A DNA stretch of 64,000 nt from a virus. This document shows, piece after piece, positions 7,441-58,316 of the stretch. Where the stretch lies: positions 1 to 64,000 of IMG/VR virus record IMGVR_UViG_3300050120_000255; one strand, 5' to 3'. The notes below the pieces were generated by a model. That model made no database searches. It was not told the origin of the DNA and saw only the letters and a program-made list of their open reading frames with translations. The translations under genes were made by a program, and so were the position numbers. Each line of letters starts with the position of its first letter. Position 1 is the first letter of the stretch.

Positions 7441-7623
7441 GTGAGCCGAGGCCGCACGTTCTCCACCGTCGAGGCGGCGAAGGAAATCGGTATTTCCAGG
7501 CCGACGCTGCTTCGGTGGATTCGGGACAAAAAGATCGCCGACGTGAAGCGGGACAGGAACAAGTGGCGCGTTTTTACAGTGGCAGACGTCGAGCGCATTA
7601 AGAGAGTGGCTGGAAATGAATAG
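7441..7623 (+). CDS. MerR/Xis-like HTH protein (putative controller)
   Basis: FSTVEAAKEIGISRPTLLRW; GGAGG RBS before GTG; overlaps MTase start. Confidence 0.8.
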   Translation: MSRGRTFSTVEAAKEIGISRPTLLRWIRDKKIADVKRDRNKWRVFTVADVERIKRVAGNE

Positions 7624-8848
7624 AGCCGGCAGGGCGAAGCACGCCGAGCCCAAGCGCGCTCCCCGTTTTATCGCTGTCGACTTCTTTTGCGGCGCTGGGG
7701 GGACGACCCGCGGGCTCATCGACGCGGGCGGCTATGTAATTGCCGGCGTTGACAAGGATATTCGCTGCGAGAAGACCTTCGTGGAGAATAATGCAAACGA
7801 GACGCTCGACTGCGCACAACCCCGGTTCTTGAATTACGACATATTTCCGAAGTCGGAAGGCTACCCGGATGGACAGCGTCGTGAGCTAACGCACGCGCTC
7901 GATGAGTTAATTCCACACTACCTAAGGAAGGCGCCGCGCGTTCCCTTACTATTCGCGATTTGCGCTCCCTGCCAACCGTTTACTCGCCTATCGAGGAAAG
8001 AGTTAAGCGAAGAAAGGAAGGAAGGGCGGGAGCGAGACAGCAATCTGTTGCGCAAGGCAGCCTCGTTTGTTCGTCGTTTCGAACCCGAACTTATACTTTC
8101 CGAAAACGTCGCCAGCATTAAGGACCCAAAGTATGGTGGGGTTTGGGACAACTTTAGGAAGACGTTGGAGAAAGCAGGGTATGTGACGGGATCCAAAATT
8201 GTCTGTACATCGCGATTTGGCATCCCCCAATTTCGCAAACGGTCGATCTTGATCGCTGTTCGGCGCGACCTCGTGCGCTTGGAACGCTTCGCAGATCTAT
8301 TAATGGATGAACTTCTTGTGCCTGAGGCGGATCCGAACGCTTCGGTGGTTTCCGTCGCCGATGCAATTGCATACCTGCCTCCTCTTAAGGCGGGAGCAGT
8401 TGATCCTGACATCGCGAATCACAGAACCCGGACGCTAAGCGATTTGAACATCAAGCGAATTGATTGCGCAAAGCCAGGGCAGTCGAATGCCTACATGGAA
8501 GACACCAAGTATGGCGATCTGTCGCTTGATTGCCATCGAAAGGTGAACAAGCGTCTTGGTGATAGATGTTTTAGCGATGTTTATACGCGCATGCACCCGG
8601 ATAGACCTTCGCCTACGATTACGACCAAATGTCACAGCATTTCGAACGGCCGATTTGGTCACTATGACGCCAAGCAAAACAGAGGCATCTCCCTTCGCGA
8701 AGCTGCCATACTTCAATCATTCCCCGACAACTACGTTTTTCATCCGACTGAACAGATCGAGCCGATCGCCCGGATGATCGGCAATGCTGTGCCTCCACGG
8801 CTTGCGCGATATTTCGCGAGTTATCTTGTCAATTCCATTGAGAGTTGA
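7616..8848 (+). CDS. DNA (cytosine-5) methyltransferase
   Basis: DFFCGAGG (I), CAPCQPF (IV), ENV (VI), PQFRKR (VIII), REAAILQSFP (IX), IGNAVPP (X). Confidence 0.95.
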   Translation: MNRAGRAKHAEPKRAPRFIAVDFFCGAGGTTRGLIDAGGYVIAGVDKDIRCEKTFVENNANETLDCAQPRFLNYDIFPKSEGYPDGQRRELTHALDELIPHYLRKAPRVPLLFAICAPCQPFTRLSRKELSEERKEGRERDSNLLRKAASFVRRFEPELILSENVASIKDPKYGGVWDNFRKTLEKAGYVTGSKIVCTSRFGIPQFRKRSILIAVRRDLVRLERFADLLMDELLVPEADPNASVVSVADAIAYLPPLKAGAVDPDIANHRTRTLSDLNIKRIDCAKPGQSNAYMEDTKYGDLSLDCHRKVNKRLGDRCFSDVYTRMHPDRPSPTITTKCHSISNGRFGHYDAKQNRGISLREAAILQSFPDNYVFHPTEQIEPIARMIGNAVPPRLARYFASYLVNSIES

Positions 8849-21522: not shown

Positions 21523-21582
21523 CGCCGCGCCTTCTATTCGATTAATTCAACGGTCTATCCATACATCGAATAGATAGGAGCG

Positions 21583-45366: not shown

Positions 45367-45393
45367 GAAAGGGCCCGGATTTCTCCGAGCCCT
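45367..45393 (-). terminator. intrinsic terminator of the 48349->45474 operon
   Basis: AGGGCTCGGA-GAAA-TCCGGGCCCT-TTC. Confidence 0.6.
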
Positions 45394-45473
45394 CCTGTCG
45401 TGGCCTACTGACCAATCATCGCCGCTCTTCCCTTTCGGGCGCTTTCAAGCGTGTTGGGATTTCGCCACGGCAT

Positions 45474-45953
45474 TCACGGCGTCCCGGGCCATCTGGTTAC
45501 GGAGCCCGGCGCGGTCAAGTGCACGGTCTGGATACCGAGCGCAAGTTTCGTGTCGTTGAGATTGCTGATCAGGGTTTCTTGCCGCCAGGCCAGCGTCGCC
45601 CACTCCTGGTTCGCTGTGTCCGCCTTCTCGAGTGCCGCTTGGACGCGCTCCAGTTCCTTTTCAACGATTTGGATATACCCTTCCCTATTATCGTTGATCC
45701 TGGCAAGCGCTATGATTTCGGCTTTCTGCTGCTCGTTGAGGTCATGCAAGGAGGTATTGGCCGCTAGAAGGACTTGAATGTTTACCTGCTCGCCGTCAAC
45801 CTCGGAGGTCAGGCCGGCATCGACTTCCTGATCCAGGGCAGCGTTTACGGTTTCAAGCTCATCCTGCAGCCGCGCGCGATCGGCGACTGCGGTTTCGTAA
45901 TGCTTAAACAAGAGGCCGGCCACTCCGGCGTCGACTCGCAATTCGATTGCCAT
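45474..45953 (-). CDS. acidic coiled-coil protein
   Basis: AAGGAG RBS; heptad pattern. Confidence 0.65.
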   Translation of the reverse strand: MAIELRVDAGVAGLLFKHYETAVADRARLQDELETVNAALDQEVDAGLTSEVDGEQVNIQVLLAANTSLHDLNEQQKAEIIALARINDNREGYIQIVEKELERVQAALEKADTANQEWATLAWRQETLISNLNDTKLALGIQTVHLTAPGSVTRWPGTP

Positions 45954-45988
45954 GAAATTCTCCTTTGGTTGCAAAATGGATCTAGAAA

Positions 45989-46219
45989 TTACGCGGTGCC
46001 GGGGGAAGCCTCGGCGTGGCAAAGCATATGGAACGCGACGGCCCACATAGCGTTGAGTACCTTCATCGTCTCGGTCGAGAAACCCCGCAGGATTGCATCC
46101 CCGGCAGCCTCATCAACTTGACGAGCGGCTGCCGACATGGCCTGGGAGCGCTCTTGGTTGCCGAGCTTCCATTGCGCGTCAGCAGCCCTCCGCAGCTTCC
46201 CCGCTATGTCAGTGGTCAT
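45989..46219 (-). CDS. hypothetical protein
   Basis: GAGG RBS; operon context. Confidence 0.55.
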   Translation of the reverse strand: MTTDIAGKLRRAADAQWKLGNQERSQAMSAAARQVDEAAGDAILRGFSTETMKVLNAMWAVAFHMLCHAEASPGTA

Positions 46220-46619
46220 AGAGGACCTCGCGCCAATGGAGGACCGAGCCACCGTCTGTCTTCGTCACGGCGCCGTCGGCAGGAACATGGGCTTTGTTCC
46301 ACAACGAGAAGAACAGTGGCGGCGCTGGCTTGGCGAAGTCCTCGTCTTCTTCCTGTTGAACGAATTCCTCGTCGACGTCCTCATGAATCCACTCAACCAA
46401 TCGATCGCGATTCTGGGAACGCCCTGAGATGTCGTATTCGAGGACCTGGGCGACCCAATCGATGCCTTCGCGAAGGATGAGGACGCGCAGCGGTCCGGAG
46501 ATCGGCGGCCTTGTCGAGTTCGCCGCGGGTGGCGGGGCGTAGTTGCCACAGGTCTTAGCGAGCGGTTGAAGAAGGGACATACGCACCAGCTCGCTCGGGT
46601 ACTGATTGACTTCGGTCAT
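46209..46619 (-). CDS. hypothetical protein
   Basis: coupled to the array; LILREG.DWVAQ.LEYDI segment resembles an antitoxin HicB-like N-terminal fold. Confidence 0.55.
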   Translation of the reverse strand: MTEVNQYPSELVRMSLLQPLAKTCGNYAPPPAANSTRPPISGPLRVLILREGIDWVAQVLEYDISGRSQNRDRLVEWIHEDVDEEFVQQEEDEDFAKPAPPLFFSLWNKAHVPADGAVTKTDGGSVLHWREVLYDH

Positions 46620-46852
46620 CAAATTGATTTTCCTTTCCGCGGGCTCTCCGCCCAAACAGTTTGAAGACTTGCAAGACGGATCTCTCCCGCGGCGCGGCGC
46701 TTGCGGATGATCGCGACGGCCGAGACGTGCGCTTCGAGATCAGTGGCGCCGTGCAGCTTCGCGACCGACTTGAGGCCATCGCCCGTGAACGGACTCTGCC
46801 GCATCAGCGCGGCGACGTGCTGCTCGAAGGCGGAGCGGTTGAAGGCGCTCAT
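46619..46852 (-). CDS. winged-helix-like mini-protein 7
   Basis: AFEQHV...PFT...A..HG...RKRRAAGEI...W. Confidence 0.7.
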   Translation of the reverse strand: MSAFNRSAFEQHVAALMRQSPFTGDGLKSVAKLHGATDLEAHVSAVAIIRKRRAAGEIRLASLQTVWAESPRKGKSI

Positions 46853-47061
46853 GTCGTGAACCACCGCTTCAATCCTCGGTCGTAAACAGCCTCGTCGGCG
46901 CGGCGCATCCGTTGCATGAGGGCGCTGGCGACTGCCCGCGCGTTCTGCGCGTCGCATCCGTACCGGATCGCGATGGCCGCGATGTCATCGATCAGAAGAG
47001 CCCAGCCGTACAGCCGGACCCGCACATCCTGGCGAAACTGGATTTGGTTGAAGGCGCTCAC
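46849..47061 (-). CDS. winged-helix-like mini-protein 6
   Basis: QFRQDV...DIAAIA..YG...QRMRRADEAVY...W; GTGA overlap. Confidence 0.7.
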   Translation of the reverse strand: MSAFNQIQFRQDVRVRLYGWALLIDDIAAIAIRYGCDAQNARAVASALMQRMRRADEAVYDRGLKRWFTT

Positions 47062-47276
47062 TTCGACACCTCCTGCCACGCATGAACCGTGGGACAATAT
47101 TTGACCTCCCCAGCCAGGCGACGGATGGAGAGATAGTTGTCGGCGGCCTTTGCCAGTAGCCAATCAGGGCAGCCGAAATTTCCAGCAATCCCCATTATCT
47201 CAGACCGAGTGAATGATCCGTCGGCGGTGCGCTTGCGCGCGGCCGCCTCGAATCCGAGCCTGTCGGACGAGGTCAT
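47058..47276 (-). CDS. winged-helix-like mini-protein 5
   Basis: GFEAAA...SFT..EI..IA..FG...AAD..L..RRLAGEVKY...W. Confidence 0.7.
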   Translation of the reverse strand: MTSSDRLGFEAAARKRTADGSFTRSEIMGIAGNFGCPDWLLAKAADNYLSIRRLAGEVKYCPTVHAWQEVSK

Positions 47277-47509
47277 CACTTGGCGACCTCGAACCACATT
47301 GTTGCGCGGCCGGACCGCTCGTGAAAAACCTCGCCGTCCTTGCGGCGCTTTTGCAAGAATCGATCAGCTACCCGATCCGCTCGACTAAACGGAAAACCGA
47401 ACGTTTTGGCGAGCTCCCCCAGTTCTCGTTGCTGGCAGGGTCCGGCACGCAGCGCCTCCCGCGCCGCCTTCTCGAACCCGGCGTTGTCTTCTTGCAGGGG
47501 CGCGCTCAC
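47276..47509 (-). CDS. winged-helix-like mini-protein 4
   Basis: GFEKAA...EL.ELA..FG...VADRFLQKRRKDGEV...W. Confidence 0.7.
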   Translation of the reverse strand: MSAPLQEDNAGFEKAAREALRAGPCQQRELGELAKTFGFPFSRADRVADRFLQKRRKDGEVFHERSGRATMWFEVAK

Positions 47510-47760
47510 GAACGAAGATCCAAGGACCAGATGGTCCCTAAATTCATCGTCCGGTACGGCAGCGTCAGTTTGCCTGCCTTGCGCAGCTTTCGGATCAGCC
47601 GGCGGACCGCGGCGCGCGGCGAGAAGCCGACATCATATTTGCGCGCCATGTAGACTAGGGCTTTGGTGGGGCAGGTCCATTCGCCGAGGCGGTGGATTGC
47701 GGCAGCTTCGAACGCCTCGACGCCGCCGATTTCGATGTCAGGCGTCAGGGCGGCGCTCAT
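47506..47760 (-). CDS. winged-helix-like mini-protein 3
   Basis: AFEAAA...MARKY...RRLIRKLRKAGKL...W. Confidence 0.7.
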   Translation of the reverse strand: MSAALTPDIEIGGVEAFEAAAIHRLGEWTCPTKALVYMARKYDVGFSPRAAVRRLIRKLRKAGKLTLPYRTMNLGTIWSLDLRS

Positions 47761-48029
47761 GATCCGCGTCTCCAAAACCGGAGAAGTCGGCCCGTCCGGC
47801 GGAACATCGTTTTGTTGGACATGCAATCATGGAAGGCGACAAACCGCCCGTCCTTCAGGCCATCAGCAACGAACTTGCGAGCATCAATGAAGGCTTCCGA
47901 GAGGGACCCGGCGTGAAACTGTGTGATGACCGCAATGTCATTCACCTCGAACGGGCTGCTGCGAATGCGGGCCTCTACCAGTGCCTCGGCGATGATCTGA
48001 TTATCAGGCGCGGGAGCCGCGGCGCTCAT
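47757..48029 (-). CDS. winged-helix-like mini-protein 2
   Basis: RSSPFEVNDI...ARKFVADGLKDGRF. Confidence 0.6.
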   Translation of the reverse strand: MSAAAPAPDNQIIAEALVEARIRSSPFEVNDIAVITQFHAGSLSEAFIDARKFVADGLKDGRFVAFHDCMSNKTMFRRTGRLLRFWRRGS

Positions 48030-48349
48030 AGGAACTTGCCCGCGATGAAGCCGGCAGCGACAGCGAGCGTAAGGAAGACGACGATCTCCCAAACGACGGT
48101 TGACGGCGCCTCGTCATCTGAGCCGGCCTCGAGTTTCTGGTAGAGAACTTCCTCGCCGACGCGCACCGGGATGACAGTGCCGCCCTCAAGGCCGTGTACA
48201 ATTTCGGCTTCAGCAGAAATCCGGGCCCCCTGGCCAAAGATCCCCTCGTGCATGAGGAAGGTGGACAGACTTTCGACGCTGAACGGTGCGCCTTCCAAAT
48301 ATTCCTTGCGGCGCGCGACTTTGGCGTCGTCGGACAGGGTCAGTGCCAT
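48026..48349 (-). CDS. winged-helix-like mini-protein 1 with C-terminal TM anchor
   Basis: GAPFSVESL...IVHGLEGGTV; WEIVVFLTLAVAAGFIAG. Confidence 0.6.
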   Translation of the reverse strand: MALTLSDDAKVARRKEYLEGAPFSVESLSTFLMHEGIFGQGARISAEAEIVHGLEGGTVIPVRVGEEVLYQKLEAGSDDEAPSTVVWEIVVFLTLAVAAGFIAGKFL

Positions 48350-48385
48350 GAAATCGAATCTCCTTTGTGATTTGGTTGCATTGCT

Positions 48386-48414
48386 ATCCTGACGTCTAAT
48401 AGACTAGGAGTCAA
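48386..48414 (-). promoter_or_regulatory. sigma70-like promoter of the wHTH array with operator motif in spacer
   Basis: TTGACT-N17-CAGGAT; CGTCTAATAGAC at 48393-48404. Confidence 0.55.
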
Positions 48415-49122
48415 GTGATAGATAGGTCAGAGACCGATCTTTTTTGGGCCGGTTTGGGCCACGATTTAGGGGTGATTTAGGGGCGCTTTTGTTCGTTAAA
48501 AGTGATCAGAAATGAATCGAGGCTGGCTATTTCACCAAAACAGTCCGGGAAATCGGCCTGATCATGTGTAAAATCAACAATTTAGTCCCGATTTAGCCCT
48601 TAGAGTGACTCGGCCTGTTTGAGGGGCGCCGGCCGCGCGGCGGGACTGGTCGTATCCTGTTGATTTTGCTTCGAAGTCGGTATGCCGGCATCGGCCTCGG
48701 AGAACTTTTCTGTTAACCCGGATTTGGAGAACTCCGGGGTAAAAAATCCGAGGGGGAGTATCTTATTGAAACTATTTTGTAAAATAGGATTGGGATGGCC
48801 TAGAATAAAAATCAGGGCCTGTTTGACCGCATTGATCGCTAAGTCATTGGCACTATTTTGTACAATTGGGTTTGGGAGGTCGCGAGGAAAAATTGGGTAA
48901 ATAGGGTATCCACGGCGCCCAATCCGATCGATTCAAACGCCTTGCCCTCCTCGAGCCGCGTGTCGCTCGATATCGGCTTGCCTTCATCGAACAGGTATAT
49001 CTATCTATCCTATCACGTCTTTGTGATAACAAACGTGTTCCTAACCATCGAATAGATAGTGACACAATGCGCATAACAAAATACGGTCTATCTTGTAGCA
49101 ACGAACGAAGCGAGCAAAGACA

Positions 49123-52100
49123 ATGAACGGCATGTTTCAAGCACTCTGCCCGGATAGCCGAAGCATATTGGCAAGCATCTACATGAACATAGAAGTTTGG
49201 CAGGACTGGTTAGACTTTCTCGCCGTCATTGACAAGCGCGGATATGGTGACTTCATGTCTTTCGCGGAATGGTGCGGTGTAGAGCCGTACCGCGCCGACA
49301 CTGGTATAATTTGGTGCTAATCCTATCATCACATCTAACAGGAGCGACTCCCATGCTTATTTCAGACAACAATGAACCGGCTACTATCCATGATTTGGAC
49401 AAGGCGCGCAGAGCCGCAAACCTTGCGCGACATGAGATAGTTAAGCGCCAGTCTGAACAACGCGCCCATGATCGTCGCACCGTTGCGGAATATCGTGACG
49501 GACGCAAAGCACGCCGCTTCGCTGGATCACTCTTTATCATCGAGGATTGATCTATCAGTACAGCGCATAGCACGCGCTGTATCAATGGATCAATTCCGAT
49601 CTAACAGGATGACCGGCTATGGCGCAGAAACTTGACACTTTGACGGTTTGGAATTTTGAGACTGCCCGCTTCACAATCGCCTTGGAAATCGATTACCTCG
49701 ATTACTTCACCTATGACGGCGACGACGAAGGCGGCGAGATTCAAGCTAATTTACGAAAAGGTGATTACGTAGCGTTCGATTCGCAAGTTGTTGTTTATCT
49801 GGATGGTCAAGAAATCGGGTTTGCTTCGCTTGGCGGTTCGATCTATGCCCGGAACGAAGTAAGCGACTTTTGGACGGCTCATCGCGACCCGGACCCAATG
49901 AATCGCAATTGCTCGACCATGCGCGCGGCGCGCGGCGAAAATTGCTCAGTCGGCCACTATTTCCCCGACATGATTCGCGAAGCGGTTGCGGGGGCGCGCA
50001 AAGCTTTGCGCGCCCGCCCCGCTATTCGTGCGAACGCCGCGTGACCGGCGCCGCGATCAAGGCGCACGCGCAGCGCGGTGGAATGCAGCTAGCTGAAGTC
50101 AAGCGCTTAATGCGCACAAACGACAACTGCAAAGCGACAAAGTTTTTGCAGTTTTGGCGCAACCGGCCGGACGCCAAGTTTGGCGACGCCTGGAGCGCAT
50201 ACCAAGATCAACATCTTAGAGAGAAAGGATTCTGACATGACCATTATCAGTCAGGGCAAACGATTCGAGTTAATTTCATACGGCAACGGCGCGGCCTATT
50301 GCTTGCGCGACAAGCCTGCCAAAATGTCAATCGTCACGCAATACGGCGACGACTCGGCCGTTTTCCGCAATGACTTTGACGCTATCGAATCGGCTCGGCC
50401 GGATGATCCAAACGACTCGGTACTAGGCGAACTTTGGGACTGGTACGGCGACGTAGCGCAGGAGGATTAGTTGAACTATTTTGTTCAAACCGGCTCCCCG
50501 TCTATTGCATGTTCGAACAGATTTGGTACTATCCATCCGATGAAACGCAAATGAGGGATAGGAAGATGACTAAGCGCAAGAATGTCGAGGAATTTTCCGA
50601 GTCCCTCGACGGGCGCAGGCACAAGGCGGATGACAAATGGCTGCGGCGCATGGATGCCCGCGACCAAGACATAAAGACCCTCGGCCAACTCTGCCGCAAC
50701 GGAGCCACGATTTATTATTCCTTCGCGGTCGGCGGGAAATACCTCGAAAGCGCTAACCCTTACGACCTAGTTTGACCTCTCACAAGGCGGCGTTCGCGCC
50801 GTCTTCACAACCAAACGAGGATACGGATATGACAAACGAAGCCAACAACACCAAGACGGTTCGTGACTTCCAAGACTCCGCCTCGGCTCGCGCTGCCAGC
50901 TTCTCTTCCCTTCAATGGCTGCGCGCTTTCACCGTCGAAGAGCACGCTGAGCGCATTCGTATCAGCCAAGATCAACCCAAATGGTTTGATAATGCCGAAT
51001 GACCATTCACAAGGCGGCGTTAGTCGCCGCCTCAATGAGTGATCCACTAGCAAATCAAGGATATGAAGATGAAATATTACGTCAAGGCCAATATTGACGA
51101 GAGGGGGCGGGTTCTAGGCTACGGTGTTTATTTCGAGCCAGTGAAACAACCGGGAATAAACGTTGAGGTTGATGCAGGCTATTTCGAGGTTCGCGGAAAG
51201 CAAACCGCCGCAATTGCGTTGTACCTCGCTAACATGCTGCGCGACGATCTAAACAAACAAATTGCCTGACCATTCATCACTGCAACCGAAACTAAGGGAA
51301 CAGAAAATGACTAAGTGGGCATATATTGTCACTGACATGCCTGTGACATACAGTAGACATACCATCCGAAGGGAACACGGTCATGATAAACAGCATCCAA
51401 TCCTACAACATCGATAAGGACGATGACGCCTCGGCTTGGGGCGCTAGCCTCGGTCTTGGTAATGCGATGTTTAAGGAAGTTCCGGTCGGCGCGCCCTTCC
51501 GGTTCGCATCAAGCGAGCAACGTTTCATCAAGACGCGCACGGGCTACAAGCAGCCGGGCATTCCGCATGAATTTAAAACCGGCGCGCGTACTGCGGTATT
51601 TTTGATCTAAGCGGCACGATAATTAGGACATGACGCCAATACTAAACATAATTGTTCAAACAGATTTGTAATTTGGCGAACGGGACAAATCGAACTTTTC
51701 TGCCCGTTTTGGACGTTTCGCGCGCTTTGGACGATGAAACAAACATGCTCTAACAGTTTTGTTCTTTCCGAAATGGGTTGCCGGATTGAGGCCGAATCGC
51801 CCCCTATATGCTCTGTACCGATCGGTCCACTCTGTACCGATCGGTTTAACACATGACCGCGATGCGATCGATTGGTAATCGAATAGTGGTATATTTATCA
51901 CAGAATTGCACTGAAATAGATTCCCCCTATCATATCCTAATACACAATCGTTTTTACAGATGATCGGAGTCAGATTGAAGCACAAAATTGGCATTTGTTG
52001 GAACGGCGCGGTACGCCATGGCGGCATGAAAACTCGTTATCTTGTCGGGCGTTCGCCTTCGATCGGCTTTCAATGGCCTTGGCGCGGACCGTGGCATTTC

Positions 52101-52988: not shown

Positions 52989-53657
52989 GACGCTCGCAGG
53001 CCGCCGGCAGTAGCCTAAAGCCTCCAATGTACCGCGCGGAACCGATTCGGCCGCCAGACCCCCGTTTCCGCCGGATTCTGACCCTACCCTTTGGCTCGCT
53101 CCGTATCGATTCGTCTGATAGGTCCGATTCCTATCCGATACGTCCGACTTTTTCCGCCGCGCCCTATCAGTTCGCCGCGATCATCAATCCCAATTGAGCC
53201 ATTGCCCCCGTTCAATGCGCCCGCGTCTCCCTTGCGTCCTAATCGTCACGCCTTGGCCTGGATGATCTTGTGCGCCCTATTGCCGCCTGGCCGCTCCTAG
53301 CCGCCCCCTAGCCTAACTCCGCCGCTCGATTGGGTTTGATGGAAAGAGACGGACCCCGACCAACGGGGAGCGGGGCTGTCTCCCTTATTCCTTCAATCCT
53401 TAATCTGACGCGGCCTTGCGAACATTTTTGTAATTATTTTCATCAAACAGACGTTCTATCTGTTGACTCCTCTAATAGACGCGCATACTAAGAAAGCATG
53501 GGTAATGGTCGTTCTATACGGGGATCACCTAAAGGTTCCCCCGATAGAACTCCTACCCTCCTTCTAAGTGTCCTCTAGGATTCGCGCGCGATATGTAAAG
53601 CCACACTAACACCTTAACGAACAGATAAGTTTCAATCTAATAGAGCGAGAAACAAAA

Positions 53658-54287: not shown

Positions 54288-55586
54288 ATGAAATTCCAGA
54301 TTAACGCCAAATGCCTCGCCACCGCCCTCGCCGCCTCTTGCAAGATTGCCGACAAGCGCGGACATTCCCCGGTTTTGACCATGATCAAGGTCACGGCGCG
54401 CGCATCCTGCATCGAGCTTACCGCCACGGATCTTGACGTGTGCCAGACGGTCCGCGTTCCTGCGGACGTCCAGACCCAAGGCGTGACTCTTCTCCCTGCG
54501 CATTCGCTTCTAGCCTTCGTTAAGTCGCTTCCGGTTAGCGGAACGATGCAGCTTGAAACCGTCGAGACGGAAAAGGATTACCACGGCGCTGCGCAACGTG
54601 ATGGCGCCGCCCTCCATATGAGCGATGGCAAATGGCGCTTTGCAGGCAAGCACAAAGCGGAATGCTCCGACAGCGAAACGAGCGGCGAAGCGGCGAAGAA
54701 ATATTGCGAGCTTGCAAACATCGGTCCGGACTCAAAGGGAGTCGCAACGGTTTCTTGCGGCTCGGCGCGCCTCAACCTGAATTATGGCGCTATCGGCGAT
54801 TGGCCGGAGTTTAAAGGCCTTCCTATGGACTGCGCAGCGTTCGAACTTGCCGCGCCTGATTTCCTTAATGCTCTTGACCGGACAACCTTCGCGATATCGA
54901 GCGAAGAAACCCGATACTATTTGAACGGCATTTTTCTACACGTGACCGAAGGTCTTTTACGCCTGGTCGCGACGGACGGTCACAGAATGGCGATTGCTGA
55001 TTTACCGGCGCCTGCGATCGAAGGAATGTTTCCCGCTGTCATCGTGCCACGGCTCGCGGTTGAAAACCTGAATCGTTTGCTCAAAAAGGTAACGGCGCCG
55101 GTTCGCGTTGCGATCTCTGGTCCGCAATCGACCTGGACAATCGAAGCGCGCGACGGAACCGTCACAACGTTCGAGACGAAGCATATTGATGGAACCTTCC
55201 CGGACTATAGCCGAGTTGTTCCCAGCGCAAACGACAAGTTTGCCACGATTGACCGCGCCGCTTTTTCCGACGCCGTTAAGCGGATCTCGTCGGGATTGCG
55301 CGGCTCCCAGTCTCGCGGCTCTGCGTTGAAACTCCTTTTCAGCCAAGGTGAGCTTAAAATTTCGCGCACAAATGCCGATATAGGCAACGCCTCCGAAAGC
55401 CTGCCTTGCGATTTCGACGCGTTCCCTTTGGAAATCGGTTTCAACGCAATGTATCTCGCCGACGCGATCGAAGCGACGGACGGTCAAGACGTGCTTTTGT
55501 CCTTGTATGATCCCGGATCGCCAACCTTGATTGCCGCCCGTCGCGGCGCCTCTAATCGTTCCGTCCTCATGCCAATGCGCATCTGA
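54288..55586 (+). CDS. dnaN: DNA polymerase III beta-clamp homologue with insertion
   Basis: LTATDLD, FAISSEETRYYLNGIFLH, VATDGHRM, IDGTFPDYSRV, IGFNA.YL, VLMPMRI. Confidence 0.9.
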   Translation: MKFQINAKCLATALAASCKIADKRGHSPVLTMIKVTARASCIELTATDLDVCQTVRVPADVQTQGVTLLPAHSLLAFVKSLPVSGTMQLETVETEKDYHGAAQRDGAALHMSDGKWRFAGKHKAECSDSETSGEAAKKYCELANIGPDSKGVATVSCGSARLNLNYGAIGDWPEFKGLPMDCAAFELAAPDFLNALDRTTFAISSEETRYYLNGIFLHVTEGLLRLVATDGHRMAIADLPAPAIEGMFPAVIVPRLAVENLNRLLKKVTAPVRVAISGPQSTWTIEARDGTVTTFETKHIDGTFPDYSRVVPSANDKFATIDRAAFSDAVKRISSGLRGSQSRGSALKLLFSQGELKISRTNADIGNASESLPCDFDAFPLEIGFNAMYLADAIEATDGQDVLLSLYDPGSPTLIAARRGASNRSVLMPMRI

Positions 55587-56360: not shown

Positions 56361-58316
56361 ATGACATCATTCACCGCCACGTACAGCCCGGAAGACAACA
56401 AGCTTCGCCTTTACGCAAGCACTCGCCTCGACGCTGAAACCTATGCGCGCGTCAAGGCCGCTGGATTCAAATGGGCGCCGAAGCAAGATTTGTTTGTTGC
56501 GCCGATGTGGACTCCCAGCCGTGACGATTTGCTAACCGAGCTGGCCGGAGAAATCGAAGACGAAGACAAAAGCCTTATCGAGCGCGCGACCGAGCGCGCG
56601 GACCGCTTCGACGATTACAGCGACAGCCGCGCGGCCGACGCCGAAAGCGCGCGCAAGGCGGTTTCCACGATCGCGGATCATATCCCCTTTGGTCAACCTA
56701 TTCTCATCGGACACCATTCCGAAAAGCGCGCGCGCAAGGATGCGGAGCGCATTGATAGCGGAATGCGCCGCGCCGTGAAGATGTGGGAAACGTCCGAATA
56801 TTGGCAGAGCCGCGCCGCTGGCGCCTTAGCCGCCGCGAAATACAAAGAACTGCCAGCGGTCCGCGCGCGCCGGATCAAGACGCTTGAAGCGGAAATGCGT
56901 TCGCATCAGCGCGACGTGGCCCTGGCCACAAAGTTCCTTGCCGCTTGGTCGATCCAAGACCTATCGCTTGACCAGGCGCGTCGGATTGTGAACGGCGGTG
57001 ATTGCTGGCTTACGGTTGAACGGAACGAGGCAAACCCATATGGGCGTACCGCCTATGACGTGTTGCGCGAGCAGGAAGACGGTTCAACGTTTTGGACTGT
57101 CGCCCAAGTTGTCGAGGTCGCGTTGCGCGTTTACCCCGCGACGATCGCCCACGCGCAGCGCTGGATTTCCCATTATGAAAACCGGCTGATTTACGAAAAG
57201 GCGATGCTTGACGAACAAGGCGCAAGCGATTTGATCGCGAAAAAGCCGCGTCCGAAGCAATTGCCGCTTTTGAACTATGAGGCCGAATCCTTCCTCGTGG
57301 CTTGCCTTTATCAAAGGGGTGAATTTGAGACGTTGAAACAGGTCCGGCTTACAGCCGAGCAATACCAATCGATTCCCGACGAAATGCGCGGAACTCGCGA
57401 GATCGAAAAGTCGCACCGCATCCGCGTTGCCCGCATCGAGTTTGACGATGCAGGAAAACTGAAGCGCTGGCCCTCTTTTAAGGCCGCATTGATGGCGGTT
57501 TTCTTGACGGACAGCAAATTCCACCCAAAGCCCGACGCGCCGAAGGCTGAAACGCCAGCGGCGGCCAAGGAACCCGATCGAGACGTTCCCGCGCCCATGC
57601 CCCCACGCGAATTCGTTGCCGCGACGCGCGAGCCGTTAGCCGAAAGCCGCGAGGCATTCCGTGCGATGGCTGCAAGCCTAAAGGCCGGTGTGTCCGCGCC
57701 CGCGCTCACCCCCACGCGCGAATTCGCTGCCGCGACGCGCGAGCCGTTAGCCGAAAGCCGCGAGGCATTCCGCGCGATGGCCGCAAGCCTAAAGGCCGGT
57801 GTGCAAGTTGTTGTGGCGCCGCAACTGTTCCCGACTTCGGAGGACATCGCGGCCGAAATGGTAGAGCTTGCGGAAATCAATCCGGGACACCGAGTCCTTG
57901 AGCCTTCGGCCGGAACCGGCAACATCATCAAAGCGATGCAAGAAACGTCGCCGGGCCTGAATATTTGGGCGATTGAGACCGTTCCGCGACTCGCGTCTGC
58001 CTTGAGCCAAAAATTCCCAGACGTTCGAGTCCGTGAGGATGATTTCTTGAGTTGGATTGATCACGGGCTTTTTGACCGCATCGTGATGAACCCGCCTTTT
58101 GAGAATGGCGCGGATATCAAACATATTCGGTACGCCGCAAGTATGTTGGCGCCTGGCGGCCGATTGGTTGCCTTGTGTGCCAACGGTCCGCGCCAACAAA
58201 TCCAATTGAAGCCGCTCGCATCGGAATGGCGCGACCTTCCGGCTGGATCGTTCAAGGCCCCAGGAACCGGCGTAAATGTGGCCATGCTGGTTATCGATCG
58301 GCCGGAGGCTCAATAA
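56361..58316 (+). CDS. DUF3560 domain fused to an amino (N6-adenine-type) methyltransferase
   Basis: ATYSPEDNKLRLY, GQPILIGHHSEKRARKD; LFPT, LEPSAGTG, MNPPF. Confidence 0.9.
   Translation: MTSFTATYSPEDNKLRLYASTRLDAETYARVKAAGFKWAPKQDLFVAPMWTPSRDDLLTELAGEIEDEDKSLIERATERADRFDDYSDSRAADAESARKAVSTIADHIPFGQPILIGHHSEKRARKDAERIDSGMRRAVKMWETSEYWQSRAAGALAAAKYKELPAVRARRIKTLEAEMRSHQRDVALATKFLAAWSIQDLSLDQARRIVNGGDCWLTVERNEANPYGRTAYDVLREQEDGSTFWTVAQVVEVALRVYPATIAHAQRWISHYENRLIYEKAMLDEQGASDLIAKKPRPKQLPLLNYEAESFLVACLYQRGEFETLKQVRLTAEQYQSIPDEMRGTREIEKSHRIRVARIEFDDAGKLKRWPSFKAALMAVFLTDSKFHPKPDAPKAETPAAAKEPDRDVPAPMPPREFVAATREPLAESREAFRAMAASLKAGVSAPALTPTREFAAATREPLAESREAFRAMAASLKAGVQVVVAPQLFPTSEDIAAEMVELAEINPGHRVLEPSAGTGNIIKAMQETSPGLNIWAIETVPRLASALSQKFPDVRVREDDFLSWIDHGLFDRIVMNPPFENGADIKHIRYAASMLAPGGRLVALCANGPRQQIQLKPLASEWRDLPAGSFKAPGTGVNVAMLVIDRPEAQ
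57601..57803 (+). repeat. 111-bp (37-aa) tandem duplication in the MTase linker
   Basis: REF(V/A)AATREPLAESREAFRAMAASLKAGV x2. Confidence 0.9.

Follow-up and report, generated by a model that had tools for sequence, protein, structure and literature searches.

A tandem array of seven small overlapping genes

The 64,000-nt window analysed here, the first 64 kb of a 78,490-bp IMG/VR contig (IMGVR_UViG_3300050120_000255) of an uncultured peat phage, carries on its minus strand, from position 48349 to position 46619, seven short co-directional genes (hereinafter designated m1–m7). With stop codons included, m1 lies at 48026–48349 (107 aa, isoelectric point (pI) 4.6, net charge –8, with a C-terminal transmembrane helix), m2 at 47757–48029 (90 aa, pI 9.8), m3 at 47506–47760 (84 aa, pI 10.2), m4 at 47276–47509 (77 aa, pI 9.5), m5 at 47058–47276 (72 aa, pI 8.7), m6 at 46849–47061 (70 aa, pI 10.0) and m7 at 46619–46852 (77 aa, pI 10.9). 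The products of m2–m7 are thus all basic (pI 8.7–10.9, net charge +2 to +7) and that of m1 is acidic.

The genes are chained by overlapping start and stop codons: 4-nt ATGA overlaps join m1/m2, m2/m3 and m6/m7, GTGA overlaps join m3/m4 and m5/m6, and the m4/m5 junction reads GTGATG, with m5 starting either at the ATG at 47276 or at an in-frame GTG at 47279. Five genes (m2, m3, m4, m6 and m7) begin with (A/G)TGAGCGC, and in m6 and m7 the 15 nucleotides that follow the start base are the same (TGAGCGCCTTCAACC, 46837–46851 and 47046–47060). An earlier sequence-only reading had claimed seven consecutive genes with ATGA/GTGA/TGATG overlaps, five shared starts and the 15 nucleotides common to two genes, and reading of the minus strand bears all of this out, together with its remark that the open reading frame (ORF) track, made of longest-ORF calls, hides the array by extending most starts upstream.

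All seven frames display a coding signature, with a GC content at the third codon position (GC3) of 0.69–0.80 against 0.41–0.53 at the second (GC2); the GC3 of the TerL terminase gene is 0.78. Conservation within the array extends to the overlaps of start and stop codons and to the N-terminal MSA. The array is reproducible, because three peat DNA runs hold an identical sequence free of variants and, in one of them, an independent assembly places the whole array on a single contig (46531–48917) with no differences; no RNA run containing the sequence is listed.

Six certain paralogs and a probable seventh

Smith-Waterman comparison against 500 shuffles gives z scores of 4.4–17 in 10 of the 15 pairs among m2–m7. 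The closest pairs are neighbours, m4–m5 (z 17, 37% identity over 70 aa) and m6–m7 (z 8.8), a pattern that local tandem duplication would give; m3 is linked to m4 at z 6.2, and m2 to m4 and m7 at z 6.1 and 5.5. The strongest test of paralogy, being independent of the array, uses a hidden Markov model (HMM) built only from the ten outside relatives described below, which scores m2 at 16.2 bits, m3 at 25.0, m4 at 65.4, m5 at 29.8, m6 at 30.4 and m7 at 30.8, with none of 1000 shuffles of each sequence above 8.7 bits. Judged by these scores, which lie far beyond chance, m2–m7 are true, highly diverged paralogs, and m2 is the furthest diverged among the certain members.

The position of m1 is less firm. 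Its Smith-Waterman similarity reaches z 3.1, to m2 only, its hhalign match has an E-value of 0.08 and is collinear and gap-free over residues 17–60, and it scores 1.7 bits against the outsider-only HMM, a value attained by 20–29 of 1000 shuffles (p ~0.02). The AF2 single-sequence model of m1 is uninformative (predicted local distance difference test (pLDDT) 51.7), and a structure search from it is meaningless. An ESM Atlas model of moderate confidence has only winged helices as neighbours, at template-modelling scores of 0.56–0.64 over residues 7–80. The C-terminal membrane helix is clear (about residues 85–105, Kyte-Doolittle 2.36 over 85–103), and a word-indexed search of 5.8 billion proteins returned no m1 homologue outside this phage. 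It is probable, though well short of certain, that m1 is a degenerate seventh copy that lost the basic motif, turned acidic and acquired a linker together with the membrane helix at its C-terminus. The seven paralogs of the sequence-only reading are accordingly to be counted as six certain members plus m1 as a probable one.

A stand-alone winged-helix fold

The AF2 model of m4 (pLDDT 91.5) comprises helix 1 (residues 9–22), a short strand (25–26), helix 2 (27–36), helix 3 (41–57) and two further strands (61–66 and 69–74), in the order H1-b1-H2-H3-b2-b3, and every top neighbour in the structure search is a winged helix. The model thus predicts the canonical winged-helix topology for m4, as had been proposed from sequence, with a firm fold class and no subfamily indicated. 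Searches of ESM Atlas with m4 gave only leads below 0.9, and a sequence-profile search of the PDB returned only chance matches such as ribosomal bL34 (E 0.27).

The proteins of the family stop 3–10 residues after the wing, unlike BlaI/MecI, LexA (N-terminal domain) and ArsR/SmtB repressors, in which further helices or domains for dimerisation, sensing or proteolysis are present. Assignment to BlaI/MecI or ArsR/SmtB was considered and rejected. For BlaI/MecI (PF03965 Penicillinase_R), a match is seen in one of the 16 members, at E 0.082 and below the gathering threshold, and the C-terminal helical dimerisation and cleavage domain is absent; for ArsR/SmtB, no HTH_5 or HTH_20 Pfam match is found, and the m4 model has three helices only, without the flanking alpha1/alpha5 dimerisation helices. 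No Pfam or NCBIfam model reaches threshold for the family.

A rare and unnamed protein family

Exhaustive HMM searching of 1.84 billion cluster representatives identified ten outside clusters of 72–83 aa (E 2e-8 to 9e-4), all of them metagenomic singletons without names, which share the signature GPF..A..G..RxADRLIQxxRKxGxI..G..W. Two long matches from the same search, P0008 and P0009, were discarded as artefacts whose scores add up many repeat matches, none above 7 bits. A 316-aa metagenomic protein, P0011, was likewise rejected as a family member, its similarity being only at the level of the helix-turn-helix (HTH); it consists of four tandem ~50-aa HTH repeats followed by an HNH nuclease domain and bears a weak likeness to the family over the helix 2-turn-helix 3 segment.

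Six-frame searching of 401 Hyphomicrobiales genomes yielded one further relative, of 87 aa, present as a single copy among unknown small genes in genome G197. It adjoins RES-Xre and Fic modules, namely a RES toxin, an Xre-type antitoxin and a Fic protein (L175, G197:C58, 87-3038), and the contig looks like a mobile island. In total, about 11 relatives are known outside the phage, none seen in more than one copy, which with the array brings the family to about 17 known members.

Other searches were negative. Pfam, NCBIfam and PADLOC hold no match for the seven array genes or for the downstream genes g8 and orf160, and the best PHROGs matches (E 0.0024 or weaker) are only to families of unknown function. 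The word-indexed search of 5.8 billion proteins, with m1 among its three queries, yielded nothing beyond proteins of the window itself and two known relatives. A scan for the P0010 pattern found none in viral contigs and, in metagenome contigs, one chance match inside an integrase. Neither a family member nor an array occurs in 80 viral (IMG/VR) and 80 prophage loci whose TerL is 39–67% identical to that of this phage, five named genomes contain no array, and in 401 genomes from the family to which the host probably belongs only winged HTH domains of larger proteins matched, with no family member or array; taken together, the 802 host-order genomes contain no array. Methylocapsa, Methylovirgula and Methylocella prophages carry the closest terminases, and metagenomes from peat contain the contig; both facts point to an alphaproteobacterium of the Beijerinckiaceae as the probable host.

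Our literature search found no description of the family or of such arrays. The protein family is new to the curated libraries, its fold and general role being familiar, and the arrangement is undescribed: an ancestral-type copy stands together with five that are re-tuned and with what is probably a membrane-anchored pseudo-copy.

The helix-3 surface is conserved in m4 and divergent in the other copies

At least nine of the ten outsiders agree at twelve positions, of which helix 3 contributes five (R46, D49, Q53, R56 and K57). In the outsiders the wing tip is basic, and neither it nor the solvent-exposed side of helix 3 varies. Within the array, m4 is the only copy with all five helix-3 residues and a basic wing tip; it is 46% identical to the outsider P0013 and nearer to the outsiders than to any neighbouring gene. 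The other five copies retain between them one to three of the five helix-3 residues, and they keep the fold core (F12, L30, A34, G38, A48, G59 and W72). Entropy at the five helix-3 positions is 0–0.47 bits among the outsiders versus 0.65–2.25 bits in the array, where it reaches 1.8–2.25 bits at R46, D49, Q53 and K57. Array members also sit on much longer branches than the outsiders in a family tree of low resolution. Taken at the sequence level, this pattern reads as the signature of one conserved copy accompanied by duplicates whose ligand-contact surface was re-tuned or released, with m4 as the apparent ancestral-like copy.

The array heads a separate operon

A -35-like hexamer, TTGACT, can be read from the minus strand upstream of m1 (48409–48414). 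A consensus scan called no full sigma-70 promoter, and the best -10 candidate, CAGGAT at a 17-nt spacing, is weak; the m1 promoter is thus a putative one. A copy of the dyad CTAT-N11-ATAG (48384–48402) overlaps its spacer and -10 region, an operator-like position. The Shine-Dalgarno sequence AAGGAG (48360–48365, minus strand), 10 nt before the m1 ATG, is the array's only strong stand-alone ribosome-binding site.

Downstream on the same strand, m7 is coupled through TGATG to g8 (46209–46619), which encodes a 136-aa acidic orphan without similarity to the array family by Smith-Waterman or HMM comparison and without a library match. It is followed by orf87 (45989–46252, likely start 46219), by the orphan orf160 (45474–45956) and by an intrinsic-terminator-like hairpin of 12 pairs with a T-rich tail (45368–45395, minus strand). 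The closest related phage contig, L007, has homologues only of orf87 (L007:3576-3938, 36% over 64 aa) and TerS; m1, g8, orf160 and orf158 are orphans. Two further dyad copies (45346 and 45159) lie beyond the terminator, before orf158 and TerS. On this gene order, the stretch from m1 through g8, orf87 and orf160 to the terminator appears to form one unit of ~3 kb, and the terminator with its 12-bp stem (45395–45368) separates it from the terminase operon. The single transcription unit with an operator-like site that had been proposed earlier is supported by the TTGACT hexamer and the dyad site overlapping the putative promoter.

On the facing strand lie small genes and those for a DnaN clamp and a DUF3560-methyltransferase; the array heads a divergent and probably early operon. 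The clamp gene (54288–55586) encodes all three Pfam domains of the DnaN-type sliding clamp, and the DUF3560-methyltransferase fusion (56361–58316) is 651 aa long.

A dyad motif at operon heads throughout the phage

Exact copies of CTAT-N11-ATAG number 11 in the window, against 0.25 expected, and none of 100 shuffles reaches that count. They stand at 21555, 22559, 35304, 38417, 45159, 45346, 48384, 49552, 56013, 61958 and 62519, and three more, at 69786, 74289 and 74808, bring the total in the 78.5-kb contig to 14, mostly at operon heads, including those of the replication, structural and lysis operons. The extended form of the dyad is CTAT(C/T)-N9-(A/G)ATAGA, and a related 12-mer, CNTCNAATAGAY, occurs 28 times versus 5.6 expected. 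Because the strand of the 12-mer core is independent of gene direction, the dyad is operator-like rather than a directional promoter. At the m1 promoter (48393–48414) and again at 53460–53480, TTGACTCCT is followed by a CTAATAGAC core, and this pairing suggests a shared promoter-operator module.

A proposed diversified set of DNA-binding regulators and its alternatives

The stand-alone winged-helix proteins of ~75 aa form a rare unnamed family that is expanded in an uncultured peat phage. The reading that we favour, and to which we give about an even chance, sees in the array a set of small DNA-binding regulators, encoded in one early operon, which arose by tandem expansion in this lineage and whose specificity has diversified. 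The ancestral protein would bind nucleic acid through helix 3 and the wing, in the manner of LexA/BlaI/ArsR-type and Stf76-type winged helices. DNA, in double-stranded form, is the most likely ligand because of the basic charge, the Arg/Lys-rich helix 3 and wing, the invariant polar face of helix 3, the B-DNA regulators among the structural neighbours and the resemblance to Stf76. The weak HTH-level likeness to P0011 points the same way. Local duplications would have been followed by divergence of the reading surface of the copies, and the operon would then deliver in fixed ratio, and probably early, one binder of ancestral specificity and five with altered or lost specificity, which would regulate phage or host transcription. 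The operon itself may be controlled through the promoter dyad, by one of its own products or by a different factor of the phage. As phage regulators, small winged-helix proteins are nothing unusual. One precedent, Stf76, is a viral winged helix of 76 aa for which binding to two sites within its own promoter is described (PMC4027180). It differs from the present proteins in being archaeal (Sulfolobus plasmid-virus pSSVx, PDB 2mlg), a single gene rather than an array and without sequence relationship to them.

Several points weigh against a set of re-tuned DNA-binding regulators. The winged helix is a generic fold that also binds RNA or proteins; DNA binding by m2–m7 is a prediction from sequence and fold, and the fold of m2, m3, m5, m6 and m7 is itself extrapolated from a gap-poor alignment to m4. 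The loss of helix-3 and wing residues in five copies could reflect lost DNA binding in place of new specificity. The early expression class is deduced from position only, and at the G197 locus, which holds the only relative with genomic context, no link between the family and the dyad exceeds chance.

A surface that diverges fast while the core is kept would also fit a counter-defence or host-takeover battery, in which the copies would be protein- or RNA-binding inhibitors of variable host targets and an arms race would have diversified the surface. The operon is accessory and lineage-specific, with no counterpart in the 160 TerL-related loci, the array stands first in a probable early operon among orphan genes, and the G197 relative sits in its putative mobile island beside the RES-Xre and Fic modules. 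We nevertheless consider such a battery unlikely: the array has no match to PADLOC or to an anti-defence family, the proteins resemble nucleic-acid binders in their basic charge and their Arg/Lys-rich helix 3 and wing, and the invariance of this surface among unrelated elements is more readily explained by a conserved nucleic-acid target than by host proteins that vary. Were the copies to target host factors, they would constitute a new counter-defence family. The basic charge of m2–m7 also speaks against the decoy role suggested by the sequence-only reading, since DNA mimics are acidic. Another possibility is that m4 alone functions and the rest are drifting relics that remain open by chance. 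Its retention of the ancestral residues and the long branches of the other copies agree with such decay, which is nonetheless quite improbable given seven intact frames out of seven, each with a coding GC3 signature, the conserved overlaps and MSA N-terminus, the preserved fold-core residues and the identical sequence in three peat samples.

The anchor of m1 raises the doubtful prospect of membrane tethering or anti-factor activity, with the tail-anchored acidic m1 holding the basic copies or their DNA at the inner membrane. The outcome would be phage DNA organised at the membrane, as by phi29 p1 and p16.7, or regulators sequestered until release. Translational coupling of m1 to m2, the opposite charges (–8 against +2 to +7), the clear C-terminal transmembrane helix and a soluble domain that is probably winged-helix-like are all compatible with tethering. 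Contact between m1 and the other copies is, however, purely hypothetical, the membership and fold of m1 are only probable, and an anchor is present in only one of the seven proteins. Phi29 p16.7 is anchored at its N-terminus, a topology opposite to that of m1 with its C-terminal anchor; p1 and p16.7 are unrelated to m1 in sequence. Both are small early membrane proteins, which attach DNA, or proteins that bind it, to the membrane and anchor replication there (PMC4974454). Also improbable is a self-contained regulatory or counter-defence device that combines m4 as the binder, five re-tuned copies and m1 as a membrane hold until a signal releases them; if true, it would be a membrane-gated phage battery of winged-helix effectors with no described counterpart. 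An architectural role, in which nucleoid-associated proteins coat or compact phage or host DNA with low specificity like histone H5 or Sso10a-type winged helices, is on a par with tethering: the structural ties are generic, coating needs no six diverged copies, and the invariant polar face of helix 3 (R, D and Q) in the outsiders suggests base-specific reading. Least probable are Z-alpha-like domains that bind left-handed Z-DNA or Z-RNA, as the sequence-only reading had suggested from the wing tryptophan. ADAR1 Z-alpha makes its contacts through N173 and Y177 of helix 3 and through P192-P193 before the wing Trp. With the comparison anchored on the Gly after helix 3, the corresponding columns hold D49, Q53 and R68-A69 in m4, none of the members or outsiders has the N, Y or PP, and only the wing Trp (W72) is common. 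Z-alpha structures tie as neighbours with dozens of B-DNA regulators, and the proteins of this bacterial phage, basic throughout helix 3, differ in these respects from ADAR1, E3L and PKZ with their helix-3 Asn/Tyr and wing Pro-Pro.

If, as the reading of diversified DNA-binding regulators proposes, the copies read different DNA sites, the array would be a natural experiment in the diversification of specificity after duplication within one transcription unit. We found no description in the literature of a six- to seven-fold in-operon expansion; in the present one, the family's invariant recognition surface survives in one copy and is precisely where the others vary. The work adds an unnamed family to phage 'dark matter', and candidate regulators for a phage with a dyad at the heads of operons of all gene classes. 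Acid-peat Beijerinckiaceae include methanotrophs, and few of their phages have been studied.

Other features of the window

No Rfam match was found in the window. A C-5 cytosine DNA methylase (PF00145, E 5e-37) is encoded at 7616–8848 and adjoins an 822-aa protein without a PHROG or Pfam match. Between the array and the facing strand lies a 1.2-kb low-GC (0.51) divergent intergenic region (48350–49620) with no convincing gene. It contains two copies of CCTAAATC 11 nt apart (48463–48481), a sequence that shows no window-wide enrichment, and GCTAAATC at 48590, as well as a 48-nt direct repeat (48765–48812 and 48846–48893, 73%) and a 21-nt inverted repeat at 49546–49594. This region may represent an origin or an iteron/control region.

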